Source: a phage
DNA: 64,000 nucleotides
Reading direction: 5' to 3' (one strand)
Sequence record: PZ452610.1
A program made the translations under genes and the position numbers. The notes beneath the pieces are model-generated. The model ran no database searches and was not told the origin of the DNA. It saw only the letters and a list, made by a program, of their open reading frames with translations. Each line of letters opens with the position of its first letter. The first letter of the stretch is position 1. Positions 3,105-61,887 of this stretch are shown here, piece after piece.

Positions 3105-3629
3105 TCATTTTAGCAAAATAAAATCAACTTGTTCTGCCAATGAACGTCTAAACATTAATTGACAACTTCCGAGTATGAAATCAGGTGCTTCATAGACCGC
3201 GATGTAGTATCCTTTAGCTTTCAAGAGTTCAACATCCACTTGGTCATCAAACCATGCATAAACCGCGTCAACACTTTCAAATCCAAAATAGAACCCTTGA
3301 GCCCAATCTTCACTCAATTCAAATGTGTACTCAATTCTATGGTATCTTAAGATATTTTGTTCAAGGAGTTTGTCTTCATTTACTGTAGGACGATTAGGGA
3401 CATTATAGTTGTCGCCGTGATGGTAGAAGTTACCTGAGAGTATTCCATGCTTATCAAGGAATTCCCATGTTTCTTCAGAGTTGTCGGTGCCTGACCAACC
3501 GTACGGCGAGCGAGGTTCTTTATTCCAAGAGGTTTCCCAAATTCTGACGGCTTTACCGTCTTCGATAGCAATTCCTGGTAATGATTCACGTTGAGTACAA
3601 AAACTACGTTCTACGCGGTAAACTAACAT
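3105..3629 (-). CDS. Hypothetical protein, 174 aa
   Basis: ATG 3629 with SD GAGGAG; early promoter immediately upstream. Confidence 0.6.
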   Translation of the reverse strand: MLVYRVERSFCTQRESLPGIAIEDGKAVRIWETSWNKEPRSPYGWSGTDNSEETWEFLDKHGILSGNFYHHGDNYNVPNRPTVNEDKLLEQNILRYHRIEYTFELSEDWAQGFYFGFESVDAVYAWFDDQVDVELLKAKGYYIAVYEAPDFILGSCQLMFRRSLAEQVDFILLK

Positions 3630-11473: not shown

Positions 11474-11812
11474 TTAACTCCTTTGTTGTTTAATTACAGG
11501 TGTATTTATAATGAATTCCTGTGGAACAGTAAAATATCCGAATTTAGCTAATACAACAACATCACCATTAATGATTACTGGAGAATAATCATCTGAGTTA
11601 TTAAATTTCCAATGAAGCCTGTCATCATATCCATCAGAACCAAATGCTCGAGTAGCCGGTCTCCCGGCTTTTTGCCATGCATAAAAATCAAGTTTCATTT
11701 GCAACCCAATCAACCATATGTAGATGGTCTGATAATTGACTAACATGCTGAAGCTGATTAGACAGGAGCTTACAAATAAGCTCACTGTTATCATTTTTAA
11801 ATAGTTGGTCAA
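11474..11812 (-). CDS. Possible hypothetical ORF (soc.1/soc.2 region); start unclear
   Basis: Open frame only; internal ATGs lack clear SD; overlaps soc late promoter. Confidence 0.3.
   Translation of the reverse strand: MTNYLKMITVSLFVSSCLISFSMLVNYQTIYIWLIGLQMKLDFYAWQKAGRPATRAFGSDGYDDRLHWKFNNSDDYSPVIINGDVVVLAKFGYFTVPQEFIINTPVIKQQRS
11503..11510 (-). promoter_or_regulatory. T4 late promoter TATAAATA for soc
   Basis: Exact TATAAATA on minus strand about 32 nt upstream of soc ATG, followed by SD AAGGAG. Confidence 0.65.
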
Positions 11813-11860
11813 TACGTTTCTTATGAGCTTTCTTAAGCTGACGTTTATTTAAACGAGCCA

Positions 11861-12382
11861 TTAATAACCTCGGTCTTGACGAGCAAAGTTTTCAGCATTC
11901 TTCAGATAATACAGTTTAAAGATTTCTTCAGCAGAAAGACCCAGACCTTGGAACATGTTCAGAACGAAGTGCAGAATATCAATCATTTCGAATTTAATTT
12001 CGAGCTGGTCTTCGGGAGACAGTTCATCAATACGACGATTACGATATTCAGCATGTTGTGCTTTCCATGGCTTCCACACAGAGCTGGCAGCTTTTTCACC
12101 GTTGGACATACCACCAAGTGAAGTCAGCAGTTCACGGAATTCATCATCAATATAATCTTTCTGATTACGCAGCCAATCAACAACATCGCCAGCAGTAGCC
12201 AATTCATCAGGATGTTTGTTATGTTCAGGCTTGTCATTTGCCAGACGAACCTGTAAAGATTTCTGCATATCAAGCATTACCTGCAGTGGGTCTTTATCTT
12301 CGTGAATCAGAGCATTAAAATAAGCTTCTTCTGCTTTATCAACACCAGAAATAAGTTGTGAACATTCGTTAAAGTGTGCCAT
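11861..12382 (-). CDS. 56: dCTP pyrophosphatase gp56 (MazG-like dCTPase/dUTPase)
   Basis: MAHFNECSQL... with C-terminus EIFKLYYLKNAENFARQD matches T4 gp56; ATG 12382 with SD AAAGGAAAAA. Confidence 0.9.
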   Translation of the reverse strand: MAHFNECSQLISGVDKAEEAYFNALIHEDKDPLQVMLDMQKSLQVRLANDKPEHNKHPDELATAGDVVDWLRNQKDYIDDEFRELLTSLGGMSNGEKAASSVWKPWKAQHAEYRNRRIDELSPEDQLEIKFEMIDILHFVLNMFQGLGLSAEEIFKLYYLKNAENFARQDRGY

Positions 12383-12470
12383 TATTTTTCCTTTCAATTC
12401 AGTATAAGAGAATTAATTCTAACATTAATTTTATAAAGCGTAATAAATAATAGGTAACTAAGGAGATATT

Positions 12471-12668
12471 ATGTTTAAACTTCCATCGTTAATCAACGCT
12501 ATTAAAGGCAATAAAAAGAAAACTGCTATCGCTGCAATAGTTGTAGGTGGCATTATTTCATGGAACTTCGGGATTGCACCATTGTTAGTTGCCCATGGTA
12601 TTATAGTTCCTTCTGTTCCATTGGATACTGTAGTTGATTTGGCCTTTGCTATTATAGGGCTTGTTTAA
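12471..12668 (+). CDS. Small hydrophobic protein, 65 aa; only plus-strand gene candidate
   Basis: ATG preceded by strong SD AAGGAG at 5-nt spacing; predicted TM segment; stop overlaps the stop of convergent gene 61. Confidence 0.45.
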   Translation: MFKLPSLINAIKGNKKKTAIAAIVVGGIISWNFGIAPLLVAHGIIVPSVPLDTVVDLAFAIIGLV

Positions 12669-13687
12669 ATCTTCGAATAACGAGATAATCTCATTTTAGC
12701 ATGCAACCCACTTGAAATATTCTGTTTCATATATTCTAAAATTTCTTGTGGTGTTGCATTTTCTTTCATTACCATATCATTCACATCCTTTGATCTCCAT
12801 GGAGCTCGATCCCAGAACATGACACGTTCGCCTGCATCAACTAATCGCTTCATGCGAGCTATAGTATCTGGATGCCTAGGTTCATTATCCATTACCCATA
12901 CCCGACGTTCTTTAAATGGTACCACATCTAAATCTATTGAGCCGCCTGTAATAGCGATTGCATTGGGTATGAATAAACTATCAATAGGGCCTTCCATTAC
13001 CCAGACGTCTCCTTCCTTAACACGTTCAACACCATAAATTTTTGTTGCAGACTCAAACGCTTTAATAGTGATATATTTCTGAGGAGCATCTTTGCGAAGT
13101 GCACGTCCTTGAAATGACTCAGCCTTCCCGTCTTTATTAAAAATAGGAATCACTAAACGTGGTTCGGGAATCTCTTTCTTATACGTACCAGGTTGAATCT
13201 TGTTGACCAATTTAGGCCATTCTAATGTGAACCATAATCTGTTCCACGATTCTTTAGGAATACACCGAGACTTAACATATTTCACAATAGGATGCTCTTC
13301 AGGCAGCTTGTCCAGACGAGAACAAGACGGCAAAGAATTTATAGTCTTTTTCTCCGGTTCTGGTTTATGTTCAGGAACCTTTTCAATCTTTGGTTCCATT
13401 CTAGCTTTTTCTTTACGAACTTCCATTAGATATTCGCGATAAAGCTCTTCATCATACTCTTTTAAGTATCCAGAAATTGTATTGTGGTATTGACAGTTAT
13501 AGCAATGCACATTACCTGGAGTACCACCGTAATACCATCCGCGAGCTTTCATTGCATCTGTCTGGGAGTCGCCACAAACTGGACAACGAAACGTTAATTT
13601 AAATGTGCTTGAATTATTGATTTGTCTAAAACGAGGGAGGTGAGAAAACGCACGATAAGCAAATTCATTATCTATCCATTCAGCCAT
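12665..13687 (-). CDS. 61: DNA primase gp61
   Basis: 340 aa; N-terminal zinc ribbon (CPVCGDS...CYNCQYH), primase core; SD GGAGAAT before ATG 13687. Confidence 0.95.
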   Translation of the reverse strand: MAEWIDNEFAYRAFSHLPRFRQINNSSTFKLTFRCPVCGDSQTDAMKARGWYYGGTPGNVHCYNCQYHNTISGYLKEYDEELYREYLMEVRKEKARMEPKIEKVPEHKPEPEKKTINSLPSCSRLDKLPEEHPIVKYVKSRCIPKESWNRLWFTLEWPKLVNKIQPGTYKKEIPEPRLVIPIFNKDGKAESFQGRALRKDAPQKYITIKAFESATKIYGVERVKEGDVWVMEGPIDSLFIPNAIAITGGSIDLDVVPFKERRVWVMDNEPRHPDTIARMKRLVDAGERVMFWDRAPWRSKDVNDMVMKENATPQEILEYMKQNISSGLHAKMRLSRYSKI

Positions 13688-13726
13688 AGTATTCTCCAGA
13701 GGCCTTAAATTAATAAGGCCATCATA

Positions 13727-14221
13727 TCACAACTTATTAATATTTACTTTAATTCGCTTTCTTTTCTTGGAAGGAATTTGTTCTGGACCTTTATTTACGA
13801 CTGCACCTGTAGTTGTTCCTGATGCAATAGCTTGAGGGCTGCCACCTGAATCACCAGCCACCATATCCTCAAATAAAGGGAGTTCTTTAAATATTTCTTT
13901 CTGTTGTTCTTCTGTAATGTTATAGCGGGATGCTACGGCACTCCAGGCAGACATCATTGAGGCCATTCCATTAAGACCTGGAACAGTGCTCATCATTCGC
14001 TTCATTGAACGAACTGAAGCATGAAAAGGTGTATAAGCCGCTTTCTCTTCAGGAGTGGAAGGACGTTTAAGAACACTTCCACGTTCATCGATGATTTTGG
14101 CTTCGTATGCTTTCCATTCGGTAAAAGGTTTTTGCATTAGTCGAATAAACTTATATGCATAAACAGAATCTATTGCAGTGTTAATAATACCCATAGGTAC
14201 CTCCTGAGTATATTTAATCAA
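13727..14221 (-). CDS. Hypothetical protein, 164 aa (61.1 position)
   Basis: ORF; basic C-terminal tail KKRKRIKVNINKL. Confidence 0.5.
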   Translation of the reverse strand: MIKYTQEVPMGIINTAIDSVYAYKFIRLMQKPFTEWKAYEAKIIDERGSVLKRPSTPEEKAAYTPFHASVRSMKRMMSTVPGLNGMASMMSAWSAVASRYNITEEQQKEIFKELPLFEDMVAGDSGGSPQAIASGTTTGAVVNKGPEQIPSKKRKRIKVNINKL

Positions 14222-17195: not shown

Positions 17196-18635
17196 AAATT
17201 TTAACTCATTGGCTAAGCTATCTAGGTCAGCACGTGTTGCTTTGGCTTTACCTACGCGTTCCGTACGATTCACCTCTGCCTGACGCATCTGAGCACCTGC
17301 GTTTTCATTTACTGTGTTAGGTGTGTTCATGCCTTCTTGCTCAATCTCAATCCATTTCTGGTTGCCTTTACGTACACCCATCAGGAATTTATTCCACTTA
17401 TTCTTATCGCCGTATCGTGATTTGATTTGTTTGATAAGTTGTTGTTCAGCTTGTGCAAGTTCTTCGGTTTCAATTACAGCCAACATGAAATCCGCCGTTG
17501 CTGGTAAACCTGCTGATTCTGCAATATCACTCATGTTCATGTCTGAAGCATCCCATGCTGCACGTCCTACTTGAGCTGCAGTCCATAGAACTGTTTCAGA
17601 TTCTACTGCTAATGCACGAAGTTCTTCTGCGATAGCTTTAACTAATGTGTAGCTATTTTCAGTGTAAACTCTGATACGACAAGACCCACAAATACCTAAG
17701 TAATCAACCATGATTACAGATGGTACAAAGTTCTTCTTAAGTTTTAACTCATTAAGCAATGCACGAAATGTATTAGCATTAGCTCCACCAGTAGGATACT
17801 GTTTAACTACTAAACGTCCTAATGTTGTTTTTGAACGCCATTTTTCCATCTTGGCTTTATATTCAGCATAAGATACGTTACCATCATCAATATCATCAAG
17901 TGATACGTCAAGCATGTTTGCATCTATACGCTTAGCACAAACTTCTTCAGCCATTTCCATAGAAATATAAAGAACGTTATGACCTGTTTGAAGATAATCT
18001 GCAGCAAGTGAACAAAGGCCTAAAGATTTACCAACGTTAACACCGGCCATTAAAACGTTCAGTGTACCTGTTTCTGCACCACCTTTGGTGATTTTATTCA
18101 GAATGTTTAATTTGAACGGGACCTTACGTGCTTTATTTAGATAAGAAAGCCAGCGTGCTTCATAATCTTCCATCCAGTCATGGCCAACATAACTATCAAA
18201 CGAAATTGAAAGTGCTTGACGCATAATATCAGGAATAGCTCCTACGTCAGGCATTTTCTTGTTACGTTGTTCTGGAGGTAGTTCAGCATTAGACTGAATC
18301 TCAATGATTTTGGATGTAGCATTATACATCGCTTTTTGCTGGACATATTTCTCAGTTTCTTTAACCAACCATTCATGGTCTTCAGGAGTATCAGCCAATT
18401 TTTCAATTAGGTCTGAAGTTCCTTTATATTCGGCTTCAGTTAAAGAACTGTTATCTAAAGCCACCTTTAACGCATTGATAGATGGCATTGCATTATATTC
18501 GTTAACGTGGCTCTTTATAATTTTAAAGACATTTTTTGCCGGTCCACGCTCAAAATACTCAGAATCCATATAAGGCCAGACCTTAGAAAAATAAGCCTGG
18601 TCATATACGAGATGAGACAAAATAATTTCTACCAC
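17193..18635 (-). CDS. 41: Replicative DNA helicase gp41 (DnaB family)
   Basis: 480 aa; MVEIILSHLVYDQAYFSKVWPYMD... and Walker A GVNVGKS match T4 gp41; start codon appears to be GTG. Confidence 0.95.
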   Translation of the reverse strand: MVEIILSHLVYDQAYFSKVWPYMDSEYFERGPAKNVFKIIKSHVNEYNAMPSINALKVALDNSSLTEAEYKGTSDLIEKLADTPEDHEWLVKETEKYVQQKAMYNATSKIIEIQSNAELPPEQRNKKMPDVGAIPDIMRQALSISFDSYVGHDWMEDYEARWLSYLNKARKVPFKLNILNKITKGGAETGTLNVLMAGVNVGKSLGLCSLAADYLQTGHNVLYISMEMAEEVCAKRIDANMLDVSLDDIDDGNVSYAEYKAKMEKWRSKTTLGRLVVKQYPTGGANANTFRALLNELKLKKNFVPSVIMVDYLGICGSCRIRVYTENSYTLVKAIAEELRALAVESETVLWTAAQVGRAAWDASDMNMSDIAESAGLPATADFMLAVIETEELAQAEQQLIKQIKSRYGDKNKWNKFLMGVRKGNQKWIEIEQEGMNTPNTVNENAGAQMRQAEVNRTERVGKAKATRADLDSLANELKF

Positions 18636-35176: not shown

Positions 35177-36192
35177 TGTGTTGCCTCAATATAAAGTTCG
35201 TTAGAATATTTGACCAGCGCTTCTCTGTCTTCGTCTGAGATATCTGGAATCGCGTCAATATATTCTTTAATGATATCTTGAAGTGATTTAATCTCGATTT
35301 CCTGGTCGTCATCAGATTCAACACTGTTATCAACTTTAGAAACCATACGAAGAGAGTGAACTACTTTTTCAAGTTCAGATTCAAACTTAGTCAACTCTGA
35401 ATCAATTTCTGATACTATAACACGTACGGCTAGATTAGTATAATCAGAATAATTGATTTTGCCTTTAAACGGATAAGTGATTCTTCGATGCCATGTTGTT
35501 TCATTAGGAATAAATTCCATACGTTCAACATCAGTGTCAAATACCCAGAATCCACGCGGGTCGTTCTCATCACCTGCAGTAAGGGTCCACGGTGTTCCAA
35601 TATATTTGACGTTAGCAGCTTCAGAGATTGTGTGGAAGTGGCCTGACCAGACTTGTTTATAAGTCTTTAAGAAATCAGGTTCAAGCCCATGAGACTTCAT
35701 CCCTTTATAGAAATAAAAGCCGTTCAGTTCCCAGTGCCCAACACAATACGCAGCAGAAGAAGTCTTGATGTGCTCTAAGATTTCACCTGTATTTTCTTCA
35801 CACATCCATGGAACGATATCAATCAGACATCCGTCAAAATCTACAGTAGTCGGATGCTCATAAATAGTAAAGTTTTCAAATTGAGTTAACAATTCAGAAA
35901 CAGTGTTAGGTGTTATTGTATTCTTAAACGCCATGTCATGGTTTCCTATCGTGACATGAACGTGAATGCCTGCTTTAGAAATCATATCAACGATTTCACG
36001 ATTGAATTCCATTGTACGATGTGTTATTGCTTTACGGACGTCAAACCAATCACCGTACTGAATCCAAGTTTTAATCCCGTGTTTCTTAGAGTATTCAATT
36101 GCTTGTCGAATACCATCACGTTGAATATCTTGAACCCATGGGTCGTCTTGTTTGACTCCGATATGGAAGTCGCCTAAGTGCAAAATTTTCAT
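35173..36192 (-). CDS. 47: Recombination nuclease subunit gp47 (Mre11/SbcD-like)
   Basis: 339 aa; phosphoesterase motifs LHLGDFH, GNHD, GHWE. Confidence 0.95.
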   Translation of the reverse strand: MKILHLGDFHIGVKQDDPWVQDIQRDGIRQAIEYSKKHGIKTWIQYGDWFDVRKAITHRTMEFNREIVDMISKAGIHVHVTIGNHDMAFKNTITPNTVSELLTQFENFTIYEHPTTVDFDGCLIDIVPWMCEENTGEILEHIKTSSAAYCVGHWELNGFYFYKGMKSHGLEPDFLKTYKQVWSGHFHTISEAANVKYIGTPWTLTAGDENDPRGFWVFDTDVERMEFIPNETTWHRRITYPFKGKINYSDYTNLAVRVIVSEIDSELTKFESELEKVVHSLRMVSKVDNSVESDDDQEIEIKSLQDIIKEYIDAIPDISDEDREALVKYSNELYIEATQ

Positions 36193-41172: not shown

Positions 41173-41643
41173 TTAATCATGTTTCCACACCCCATTGGTA
41201 TTCGACCAAAGTCGCTGATTATCTGATCCTCGCCACAGTTTTTTGGTCGGAAGATTTTTCTCATACTTCCCATCAATAATAACATCAACATATTTAAGCA
41301 TTTCTAGTTGTTTAATATCTTCAAACTTATATCCTGTCCACAACCAAATGCTTTTATTGGGATAAATATTTTTTACTGTTTGAACAATGCAATGAACAAC
41401 ATCTCTATTATCAGGATAGAGAGGGTCGCCTCCGGTTATAGTCAATCCTTCTATATAATCATTATTCAAACATTCAATTAATTGTTCTAGTGTCTCTCCA
41501 GTGAATGGAGCACCATTTCTAGCGTTCCATGTTGATTTATTATAACACCCTTCACATTTATGCAAACAACCTGTAACGAAAAGAACGACCCTGCAACCAG
41601 GGCCATTCACAAAATCGCAAGGATAAAATCTATCATAATTCAT
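41173..41643 (-). CDS. nrdG: Anaerobic ribonucleotide reductase activating protein NrdG (radical SAM)
   Basis: 156 aa; Cys cluster CLHKCEGCYN; immediately downstream of nrdD. Confidence 0.9.
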   Translation of the reverse strand: MNYDRFYPCDFVNGPGCRVVLFVTGCLHKCEGCYNKSTWNARNGAPFTGETLEQLIECLNNDYIEGLTITGGDPLYPDNRDVVHCIVQTVKNIYPNKSIWLWTGYKFEDIKQLEMLKYVDVIIDGKYEKNLPTKKLWRGSDNQRLWSNTNGVWKHD

Positions 41644-43927: not shown

Positions 43928-43964
43928 GATAAACCCTTACCTTAAATAGATAAGGGTATTTATA
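43928..43964 (-). promoter_or_regulatory. Late promoter TATAAATA plus hairpin upstream of gene 49
   Basis: Exact TATAAATA (minus) 30 nt upstream of ATG; inverted repeat CCCTTA/TAAGGG spans the leader. Confidence 0.6.
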
Positions 43965-51684: not shown

Positions 51685-52674
51685 TTATTTATAGTAAGAA
51701 TTATGATTTTCGAGATAGACTTGCTCAAGGAAGTCATCCCAGAAACTCATATCTACTTTTTGTTGCATACCGTTCTTAGCGGCTTGTTCTGACGCATGTT
51801 CAACTTGGTCAACGATATCTTCTAGGAATTCTTGCACAGTTTTAAACGTATGTTTACCAAGCTTAACATCGAGAATAAATGGAGCATCCTGAAGTGGGTA
51901 AACCAGGTCGCCGGTTTTGTAAATTTCCAATAATTGAAGTCCACCACGACATGCATGACTCAATGCTTTCCAGTCAATACCTTCGTTAGCTTCTGCCTTA
52001 CGAGCACGTTCGCCATAGTTCTCTTCCAGTTTAACCAGGATGGCATTGAACTCTTTATTGGTTAACGTATCTTGGAATTTACGGTCTAACAGATTATAGA
52101 ATGTTTGCTTACCTGTTTTCTCGTTTTCGGTTTCAACCCATGAAGCAAATTCACCTACAGGCAGAACATTCTTCATATGTGATAAACGAATTACTGCACC
52201 ATTATCAAAGTATTGTCCCCATTCATTAGAACGTTTAAGGGCTTGACGAAGAACAGCCAGTCGAGAACCCTTGACACCGTATTTAGAAGCTTGCTTACGG
52301 ACATACCCTAAATAAGATTTCATGTTAGTGGTATAGAAACGAGACCTGTTATCTTGAATATACTTCCATACATCAGGCAAATCAGATTTAACTACTAGAC
52401 TTTGTGGAGTGTGAAGCATATCTAATGCGACGGTTTCACCATCTGCAGCTAGTTTAAAGAAATATTTGAGACTATATAACTCATGGTCCACGTCGTCTTT
52501 TGTGTTCTTAGAAGATGTGTTATTCGTGTTCTTGCTCATGTGTTCTTTAACGTTACCGGTCAAGATATCACGAGCATGAGGGACATAAATTTCTTTAAAA
52601 TCGACGTCAGATTCAGGAGTAGACGTTCCATAAAGGTGGCTACCAAAGTAGCCTTTCATAATTGTTTTCATCAT
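51685..52674 (-). CDS. Pol-beta-superfamily nucleotidyltransferase-like protein, 329 aa
   Basis: N-terminal GSHLYGTSTPESDVDF fits the G-S-x9-13-D-x-D nucleotidyltransferase signature. Confidence 0.6.
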   Translation of the reverse strand: MMKTIMKGYFGSHLYGTSTPESDVDFKEIYVPHARDILTGNVKEHMSKNTNNTSSKNTKDDVDHELYSLKYFFKLAADGETVALDMLHTPQSLVVKSDLPDVWKYIQDNRSRFYTTNMKSYLGYVRKQASKYGVKGSRLAVLRQALKRSNEWGQYFDNGAVIRLSHMKNVLPVGEFASWVETENEKTGKQTFYNLLDRKFQDTLTNKEFNAILVKLEENYGERARKAEANEGIDWKALSHACRGGLQLLEIYKTGDLVYPLQDAPFILDVKLGKHTFKTVQEFLEDIVDQVEHASEQAAKNGMQQKVDMSFWDDFLEQVYLENHNSYYK

Positions 52675-54839: not shown

Positions 54840-55052
54840 TTAATTTTGGCCAGTATTTATTTTTCGCCTTTGGACGGCCTTAACATCTGTGAGGTATTTT
54901 TCCAGCTTGCGCTTGCGTGTATAATCAGCTTTAGAACCAGTTTGACGGATATCCTCGTTTAAATGAGAAATAGAATGTCCTAATTCTCTTCGGATTTCAT
55001 CCAATTGGGTTACAGTAAGATTACGAAGTTGTCTTTCGTTTAATTGCTGCAT
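54840..55052 (-). CDS. Hypothetical protein, 70 aa
   Basis: ORF between rI and tk. Confidence 0.45.
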
Positions 55053-55079
55053 ATATACCTCTTGGTTAGATATTAGTAT

Positions 55080-55661
55080 TTATAACAACCCTGTCAAATC
55101 ATTCCAATGCTTCCGGCATAATGACACGTATCTATCGGTATCACCAATTTCAATTTGACTGCCATCTGTAATTGGAAGTCCGTCTTCCGTGACTCTAGCT
55201 ACCATTGTGGCCTTTTTACCGCAATGACAGACACCTTTAAGTTCAACAAGCTTATCGGCAATAGCCATTAATGCTTGAGAACCTTCAAATAGATTACCTT
55301 TAAAATCTGTTCGTAGTCCATATGCCATTACTGGCACATTGTATACGTCAACAATACGACTAAGTTGATACACCTTTTCAGTAGTTAAGAACTGAGCTTC
55401 GTCAACAAATACACAGTGAATATCCTTTTGTGCTGCAGCCCATTTATAGAATTCAAAGATATCCATGTCTTTTGTAATTATATTGGCATCCTGACGAATA
55501 CCAATACGAGAGACTATTTCACCTTTTGAATCACGAGTATCAATAGCCGGTTTAAGAACTAATACACCCATGCCACGTTCTTTATAGTTATGTGCGGCAG
55601 TAAGTAATGAAGAAGACTTACCAGCGTTCATAGCGGCATATGTAAAAATTAAACTAGCCAT
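55080..55661 (-). CDS. tk: Thymidine kinase
   Basis: 193 aa; Walker A AAMNAGKSS, zinc ribbon CHCGKK...CRKHW. Confidence 0.95.
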   Translation of the reverse strand: MASLIFTYAAMNAGKSSSLLTAAHNYKERGMGVLVLKPAIDTRDSKGEIVSRIGIRQDANIITKDMDIFEFYKWAAAQKDIHCVFVDEAQFLTTEKVYQLSRIVDVYNVPVMAYGLRTDFKGNLFEGSQALMAIADKLVELKGVCHCGKKATMVARVTEDGLPITDGSQIEIGDTDRYVSLCRKHWNDLTGLL

Positions 55662-58890: not shown

Positions 58891-59252
58891 TATAGACTCT
58901 CAGTAAAGGTACGAGCGATAACGTCGCGCTGCTGTTCCGGGGTCAGAGAGTTAAAGCGAACTGCATAACCGGATACACGGATGGTCAGCTGTGGATATTT
59001 TTCCGGATGCTTAACTGCATCTTCCAGAGTTTCGCGACGCAGAACGTTAACGTTCAGATGTTGACCACCTTCAATTTTAACTTTAGGTTGATGTTCAATT
59101 TCAATTTCACGGGCATTCAAACCGTAGAAAATTTCCGGGTCTACAATAGCGTCTTCTTTAAAAGTCTTAGAGACGATAATCCGGGCTTGAGTACCGTCTT
59201 CAAAATAAATAGTGCCTTTATGTGCACCTTCAAGAATTTGATATGCTTTCAT
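58890..59252 (-). CDS. GrcA/YfiD-like autonomous glycyl radical cofactor
   Basis: 120 aa; C-terminal [25 protein letters not shown] is the glycyl-radical signature; SD GAGGT. Confidence 0.75.
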
Positions 59253-61853: not shown

Positions 61854-61882
61854 AATACCTCCCACGTTTATAGGAGGTATTT
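61854..61882 (-). promoter_or_regulatory. SD-sequestering hairpin upstream of gene e
   Basis: Minus strand ACCTCC-TATAAACGTG-GGAGGT places SD GGGAGGT in a stem; same arrangement described for T4 gene e. Confidence 0.5.
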
Positions 61883-61887
61883 ATTAC

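Follow-up and report, generated by a model that had tools for sequence, protein, structure and literature searches.

A small plus-strand gene for a predicted membrane protein, with a putative late promoter, between genes 56 and 61 of an RB69-like phage

How does a single short open reading frame come to lie opposite to all the genes that surround it, and is it a gene at all? This question is raised by a stretch of phage DNA of 64,000 nucleotides (sequence record PZ452610.1; hereafter, the window), in which a plus-strand ORF is found between gene 56 and gene 61, both of them encoded on the minus strand. An earlier reading of the letters alone (the original prediction) had described there a lone ORF for 65 hydrophobic amino acids, preceded by a near-ideal Shine-Dalgarno sequence and ending in a stop codon shared in part with gene 61. 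The description is borne out in its details. The ORF starts with ATG and runs over 65 codons, giving the product MFKLPSLINAIKGNKKKTAIAAIVVGGIISWNFGIAPLLVAHGIIVPSVPLDTVVDLAFAIIGLV; the hexamer AAGGAG is followed by 5 nt (ATATT) and then by the ATG; and the two TAA stops interlock within TTTAAA. To call it a lone gene is also fair: when the plus-strand ORFs of at least 50 amino acids lying outside minus-strand ORFs of at least 70 amino acids were surveyed over the whole 64 kb, it was the sole one with both an ATG and a Shine-Dalgarno sequence. Minus-strand ORFs of that size constitute 87% of the window, and the ORF is the only credible plus-strand gene in it. The features of the locus are collected in Table 1, where the ATG of gene 56 was placed at 12382 by homology with the RB69 annotation.

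Table 1. Features at and around the plus-strand ORF, and comparable late-type sites elsewhere in the window
Feature	Position	Strand	Basis
CDS of predicted small membrane protein, RB69ORF029w orthologue, PHROG 2024	12471..12668 (including stop)	+	ORF listing, phrog_2024 match
Shine-Dalgarno AAGGAG	12460..12465	+	Read directly from sequence
Putative late promoter element AATAAATA	12442..12449	+	7/8 of TATAAATA, A(-13) variant, 21 nt 5′ of ATG
Predicted TM helix, codons 19-41	12525..12593	+	AF2, Kyte-Doolittle, TMHMM
Predicted periplasmic tail, codons 42-65	12594..12665	+	AF2, charge distribution
TTTAAA with interlocked convergent TAA stops	12664..12669	.	4-nt CDS overlap with gene 61
MotA-type middle promoter of gene 56, GCTTTA-N12-TAGAAT	12416..12439	-	Homologous position annotated in phage SA79RD
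Gene 61, DNA primase, 340 aa, convergent neighbour	12665..13687	-	phrog_47 E=1e-101; RB69 annotation
Gene 56, dCTPase, divergent neighbour	11861..12382	-	phrog_173 E=1.4e-45; RB69 annotation
Six loci before soc, endonuclease VII (gene 49), an 88-aa secreted protein, rI, a 70-aa protein next to rI, and lysozyme e	11503-11510, 43957-43964, 51686-51693, 54854-54861, 55077-55084, 61878-61885	-	ATAAATA

By its sequence, the window is that of an RB69-like Mosigvirus; the 1.95 kb surrounding the ORF match the corresponding DNA of E. coli O157 typing phages 3, 6 and 13 at 100% identity and that of RB69 at 96.6%. In the latter, the counterpart is RB69ORF029w (NP_861719.1), a “hypothetical protein” whose product is 98% identical and whose gene, too, stands between genes 56 and 61 in the same orientation. 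The gene is therefore known already: its annotation dates back to the RB69 genome, and RB69ORF029w has been listed as a predicted transmembrane (TM) protein with a TMHMM segment at 21-41 (Nolan et al., 2006, Additional file 2; PMC1524935). Hundreds of genome annotations include it as a hypothetical protein, and the identical protein (100%) occurs on 217 contigs in public databases, its name being always “hypothetical” or “uncharacterized”. The profile phrog_2024 (“unknown function”) is matched with E=1.9e-27, residues 1-65 against positions 1-65 of 65, and it is also matched by 20 of 20 diverse relatives. As a sequence feature, a hypothetical-protein gene already present in public records is ordinary. 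What is added here is the reading of a late promoter, the extent of the family, with two paralogous subfamilies and members outside the T4-like phages, and its omission from the T4 reference. A literature search returned no paper on RB69ORF029w or phrog_2024, nor on ribosome profiling or re-annotation of T4, and it turned up neither transcript nor ribosome-occupancy nor peptide data for the ORF from any phage. The “Emp” peptide of Mosigvirus AV110 is another gene (Gp94, 109 aa, adjoining motA).

The original prediction had proposed its own test, the conservation of the reading frame in relatives, and the outcome is strongly favourable, with homologues, dN/dS and frame all in agreement. Homologues were detected by tblastn in 693 phage records, in 686 of them at a coverage of at least 80%. 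In the Tequatroviruses the amino-acid identity is about 54% (54% for T4 itself) and the tblastn match always adjoins the primase gene. Furthermore, the gene is flanked by 56 and 61, and oriented against both, in all the Tevenvirinae genera that were compared (Mosigvirus, Tequatrovirus, Gaprivervirus, Dhakavirus, Marfavirus, Jiaodavirus, Kanagawavirus, Gelderlandvirus and Moonvirus), as well as in metagenomic T4-like contigs, and GGAG or GGAGG is found at the same distance from the ATG in every lineage examined. Nei-Gojobori dN/dS amounts to 0.11 against T4, 0.15 against Gaprivervirus (synonymous sites being saturated in both of these comparisons) and 0.05 against RB69, with values of 0.05-0.12 within genera. 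In the comparison with T4, the differences at codon positions 1, 2 and 3 number 31, 12 and 41, respectively (chi-square p=4e-4). Moreover, the frame of the ORF is the sole one free of stops in all 9 lineages compared. Judged by these comparisons, the ORF is a genuine protein-coding gene, not a chance ORF, and its protein is under purifying selection. The core of the original prediction is thus supported: a genuine gene, isolated on the plus strand, that converges on gene 61, overlaps it and encodes a small hydrophobic membrane protein.

On the other strand, antisense frame -2 is likewise open across 12471-12665 here and in T4, with a start codon available only to its last 31 codons. In other lineages, 1-4 stops interrupt it, so that the frame is not conserved.

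The family is larger than its RB69-like branch. A second subfamily, here called B type (MGTIFYQIWKL...WNLLVVPIAATQGV.LPQVT.EH), is found in the same place in 257 further records, in Dhakavirus, Marfavirus and other Klebsiella and Enterobacter phages. In the Gapriverviruses TH41 and VR26, the A and B types stand in tandem, the second copy beginning 8 nt after the stop of the first and having its own Shine-Dalgarno sequence (extract positions 2501-2698 and 2707-2907 in TH41, and likewise in VR26). Most other genera examined have only one of the two types at the locus. In CJ20 and VR20, the B copy (downstream of 2698 and 3198 in the respective extracts) has a stop at codon 2 (ATG TGA), and that of CJ20 also an internal deletion; from its sequence, this copy looks like a decaying pseudogene. 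In addition, frameshifted copies of the ORF occur in T4_ev240 (about 1410-1466 in the extract, within the A-run GGTAATAAAAACG) and in ERS-1 (about 2492-2662 in the extract). Given these frameshifts and the decay of the second paralogue, the gene, or at least one copy of it, may be dispensable in the laboratory, or else the frameshifts may be homopolymer sequencing errors.

Particular attention must be given to T4. The original prediction had put the ORF at the place of dam and the 61.x genes in T4; this is correct for dam, placed between the T4 orthologue and gene 56, and incorrect for the 61.x genes, which are on the other side, upstream of gene 61. The T4 orthologue itself abuts gene 61 at the same position as in the window. 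It is intact and encodes 66 aa (MVQKLMALVNAIKGNKKRIAF...VGLI; NC_000866.4, approximately 17738-17938 on the plus strand, 3239-3439 in the extract), with AAAGGAGG, GATAAATA and the interlocked stop with gene 61. Nevertheless, the interval of 309 bp between dam and gene 61 has been left empty in NC_000866.4 and in AF158101.6, whereas newer automatic annotations do call the gene. Intact orthologues are likewise unannotated in the RefSeq records of JS98 (extract 2001-2201) and PEi20 (extract, about 1786-1970), where the interval from gene 56 to gene 61 has been left empty.

Such an omission has consequences. [quoted passage not shown] T4, the most thoroughly studied of these phages, has an intact and selected orthologue that is invisible to counts of annotated features. 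Furthermore, the gene is one of very few on the late strand inside the early region, conserved across most of the subfamily and with a membrane product. The practical value is modest, namely that of a cheap and well-defined target for a knockout and for the re-analysis of existing data.

If the gene is expressed, from which promoter could this occur? In this respect, the original prediction, which saw no convincing promoter on the plus strand, has to be revised: the element AATAAATA upstream of the ORF is of the T4 late type and not of the sigma-70 type, and the plus strand around the ORF yielded no sigma-70-like promoter. Among 50 T4 late sites listed, 32 have the perfect TATAAATA and 9 carry A at -13 (Geiduschek and Kassavetis, 2010; PMC2988020); no other natural variant of this T4 late promoter is as common as AATAAATA. 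Conservation of the T at -13 is poor in RB69 and other relatives, where A and T are both common (PMC1524935). Transcription would start at about 12455-12457, leaving a leader of about 15 nt.

The heptamer ATAAATA is rare in the window, with 12 occurrences on both strands where 28.8 +/- 4.9 are expected, i.e., a depletion of about 2.4-fold; 4 of the 12 are on the plus strand. On the minus strand it occurs at six loci (Table 1), in each case 24-32 nt 5′ of a gene start, and the promoters of rI and e in the window are of the same AATAAATA variant. Four of the genes concerned, soc, 49, rI and e, are late or late-boosted in T4. Like the ORF, they have [T/A]ATAAATA 21-32 nt 5′ of the start codon, and in both cases the Shine-Dalgarno sequence is carried on a short leader. 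In orientation they differ: these four share the strand of the early genes, while the ORF faces the other way, towards gene 61, and is only probably transcribed late, as judged by its motif. The remaining plus-strand occurrences (35860-35866, 41362-41368 and 59205-59211) have no credible plus-strand ORF downstream; the sole ORF after them, at 41380/41392, has 29-33 codons and lacks a Shine-Dalgarno sequence. These three look like chance occurrences inside minus-strand genes.

Comparison among relatives adds weight to the late reading. In 11 of 13 lineages, NATAAATA is found 16-41 nt 5′ of the ATG, while the rest of the upstream sequence cannot be aligned. The form of the motif varies: AATAAATA in the Tequatroviruses without dam and in JS98 (Dhakavirus), GATAAATA in T4, CATAAATA in Gaprivervirus and in PEi20 (Kanagawavirus), both CATAAATA and GATAAATA in Jiaodavirus, the perfect TATAAATA in Marfavirus pzk-kv8 and in Kanagawavirus Entb_45, and GATAAATA and CATAAATA, respectively, in two metagenomic T4-like phages; Gelderlandvirus and Moonvirus deviate, with ATTAAATA. 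Because NATAAATA recurs in relatives whose upstream sequence is otherwise unalignable, the gene is probably switched on late in infection. The location of family members outside the T4-like phages, within late tail-gene modules, also counts in favour of this reading. The site of RB69ORF029w is absent from the 31 sites of a late-promoter prediction published for RB69 in 2006.

The late element and the MotA-type middle promoter of gene 56 stand back to back, on opposite strands and 2 nt apart, at 12416-12449, in a 73-bp spacer. The sequence TATAAAGC is read on the plus strand because the minus-strand promoter of gene 56 is located there.

As regards the product, a 65-residue inner-membrane protein with a single TM helix is predicted. 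AlphaFold2, run on a 16-sequence alignment, gives a model with a pLDDT of 82.9, in which residues 3-11 form a short helix, 15-41 a long one, 42-50 a loop and 51-61 another short helix, and the Kyte-Doolittle maximum of 1.93 is reached at residues 22-41. Residues 1-18 have a net charge of +5 and residues 42-65, which contain no basic residue, of -2; under the positive-inside rule, these charges suggest that the N-terminus is inside and the C-terminus outside (N-in/C-out). Across 20 diverse members, P37 never varies, W31, N32, G43 and P47 hardly vary, and an acidic residue is usual at position 52. The presence of a polar Asn in the middle of the helix suggests helix-helix association or oligomerisation. 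Since the C-terminal stretch (...DLAFAIIGLV) is as hydrophobic as the TM helix, a two-span hairpin is a possible alternative topology.

Taken as a whole, we consider it likely that the ORF is a real gene of the T-even phages, orthologous to RB69ORF029w, driven by a late promoter and encoding a bitopic inner-membrane protein of 65 residues. Its conservation, the selection on it, the conserved promoter motif and the membrane-protein character of its product are observed; the rest of the picture would be as follows. The gene would be transcribed from the strand opposite to all the surrounding early and middle genes, most likely from the gp55-dependent late promoter, on a short leader that carries AAGGAG. 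No terminator-like site was found in 11800-13800, and the interlocked stops leave no space for one; as the stops overlap, the late transcript would necessarily continue antisense into the 3′ end of the primase gene, and the early/middle message running from gene 61 towards gene 56 would cross the ORF in antisense. With this overlap shared in both directions, the ORF and gene 61 would be separated in time, not in space. The protein would expose a lysine-rich and amphipathic N-terminus to the cytoplasm, cross the membrane by a helix with a conserved W-N...P, possibly engaged in helix-helix association, and end in a periplasmic tail of 24 residues with a conserved G, P and acidic residue.

What such a protein would do is a more difficult matter. 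No match was found in Pfam or NCBIfam for the protein of the window or for its T4, Gaprivervirus or B-type relatives, and distant relatives give only sub-threshold Pfam matches. A HMMER profile search against 1.84 billion representatives retrieved only 16 clusters, all of short proteins of the same kind; none of the proteins matched in a word-indexed search (E up to 10) has a Pfam domain, and a structure search in BFVD found only members of the same family. Among the members outside the T4-like phages, two (on siphovirus-like contigs) are located in a set of tail genes, directly behind the gpJ-like tail-tip gene, one closes a prophage-like region and one adjoins a RelA/SpoT-domain gene. No lysis cassette directly adjoins these non-T4-like members, their neighbours being tail proteins or unknowns, and tblastn with them matches only family members of T4-like phages. 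The member beside the RelA/SpoT-domain gene (P0118, 59 aa, 129-308) is in a context unlike the others, immediately upstream of that gene (352 aa, 325-1383) on a metagenomic contig of 2.2 kb. A lead from the holin family PF11351 to TeaA of ICP1, an experimentally tested holin assigned to that family by remote homology in the literature, was followed and rejected as evidence: TeaA falls below the Pfam model in hmmscan, and hhalign against the family profile gives a probability of 0.4%. Only tentatively, and with some doubt, can a late-acting function in the envelope be proposed as the most plausible class, either a modulation of lysis timing or a block of entry or exit at the inner membrane through contacts of the TM helix.

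The first of these options would make the product a holin-like or antiholin-like regulator of lysis timing whose TM helix associates with the holin T or with itself. It is a small phage protein with at least one transmembrane domain (predicted helix 15-41; TMHMM 21-41), as holins are, it is probably late, and its gene shares the AATAAATA variant with rI and e. Moreover, the holin T of T4 is bitopic and N-in/C-out, the topology suggested here. Three divergent members of the family match the same C-terminal region of PF11351 (GTA_holin_3TM) with E=0.03-0.1, a weak similarity to the last TM region of 3-TM holins; one member matches the PHROG holin 3427 with E=5e-4, two match the holin 11161 with E=0.012, and one has been labelled “Holin” in UniProt. 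However, the matches are all sub-threshold (13.6-15.3 bits against a cut-off of 24.8), no model is matched above threshold, and the protein of the window itself gives none. Such weak matches are biased as well, since the small phage membrane proteins that have been annotated are mostly called holins. The product, with one TM helix, also lacks the hydrophilic and charged C-terminal tail of holins and antiholins, ending in ...AIIGLV; it shows no similarity to the RI of the window, and the comparison with TeaA speaks against this option too. Finally, t, e, rI, rIII and the spanins already explain lysis in T4. We therefore regard a role as holin or antiholin as unlikely.

The second option, superinfection exclusion or envelope protection, would consist of a block of DNA entry or a late stabilisation of the inner membrane, in the manner of Imm or of morons of the HK97 gp15 type. 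With these the product has in common that it is a small hydrophobic phage protein of inner-membrane character. The siphovirus-like members stand just after the gpJ-like tail-tip gene among tail-fibre genes, a position that often holds exclusion morons, and the T4-like locus is within a few kb of sp and imm. Yet hhalign against the Imm homologue of the window gives a probability of 0.1%, in line with the lack of sequence similarity, and the timing differs: exclusion genes of T4, such as imm with its early promoter, are early, whereas the ORF has only a late-type promoter and no sigma-70-like site on the plus strand. Furthermore, a single short TM protein has no obvious means to block an outer-membrane receptor. 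This option appears to us quite unlikely. It would also be a rather improbable outcome that the T-even phages, T4 included, possess in this overlooked late gene a missing component of late envelope control, be it a modulator of holin T timing and lysis inhibition or a late block of DNA entry; if true, such a component would have escaped decades of genetics and of annotation-based omics through its absence from the T4 reference annotation.

The function could also reside in the RNA instead of the protein. A late antisense RNA covering the 3′ end of gene 61 would help to shut off the primase mRNA late in infection, the ORF being incidental. The convergent overlap of 4 nt, with no terminator, forces an antisense overlap of the two messages, and at a number of sites in T4 the two strands are known to be transcribed at different times (PMC2988020). 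An overlap with gene 61, or with whichever gene stands there, is widely conserved: it is the same 4 nt in T4, Marfavirus, Kanagawavirus, Moonvirus and the metagenomic relatives. Nevertheless, it is absent in Gaprivervirus, Gelderlandvirus and Jiaodavirus, where the ORF is kept; being widespread but not universal, the overlap is therefore not the reason for which the ORF has been retained. The strong purifying selection on the amino acids, with synonymous sites saturated, and the conserved strong Shine-Dalgarno sequence also stand against an RNA function. A search of the locus in Rfam gave no match, and the minus strand folds no better than shuffled sequence (z=+0.9). In our judgement, it is very improbable that the RNA is what matters; an antisense effect could be at most an added role of a gene that makes a protein.

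The arrangement recalls type I toxin-antitoxin systems, in which, as here, the mRNA of a short hydrophobic ORF is necessarily overlapped by an antisense transcript. The differences are several: the antisense RNA would here be the ordinary polycistronic mRNA running from gene 61 to gene 56 and not a dedicated sRNA; neither promoter nor terminator of such an sRNA was found in 11800-13800, nor any Rfam match; and the ORF is conserved and syntenic in a lineage of lytic phages. In that same interval, the promoter-like sites on the minus strand are only weak ones (9 of 12 positions), within coding genes or directed towards them.

That the ORF is a chance frame in a spacer made of the middle promoter of gene 56 and the 3′ UTR of gene 61, or is expressed early from an unrecognised promoter, is hardly tenable, for although the spacer does hold a MotA-type promoter, the T4, JS98 and PEi20 reference annotations leave the interval empty and antisense frame -2 is open here and in T4, the homologues, the dN/dS and the conservation of the frame speak against chance, as do the stops of the antisense frame elsewhere and the lack of a conserved RNA structure or Rfam family, and the lack of a plus-strand sigma-70-like site against early expression.

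Several members of the family have received product names for which no basis is visible. These include “dCTP pyrophosphatase” in Salmonella phage CGG4-1 (extract 2001-2225), “DNA packaging ATPase” in the Klebsiella phages SAKp28 and VAC36 and in Yersinia phage P8, and the UniProt name “Holin” for the member in Escherichia phage OE5505.
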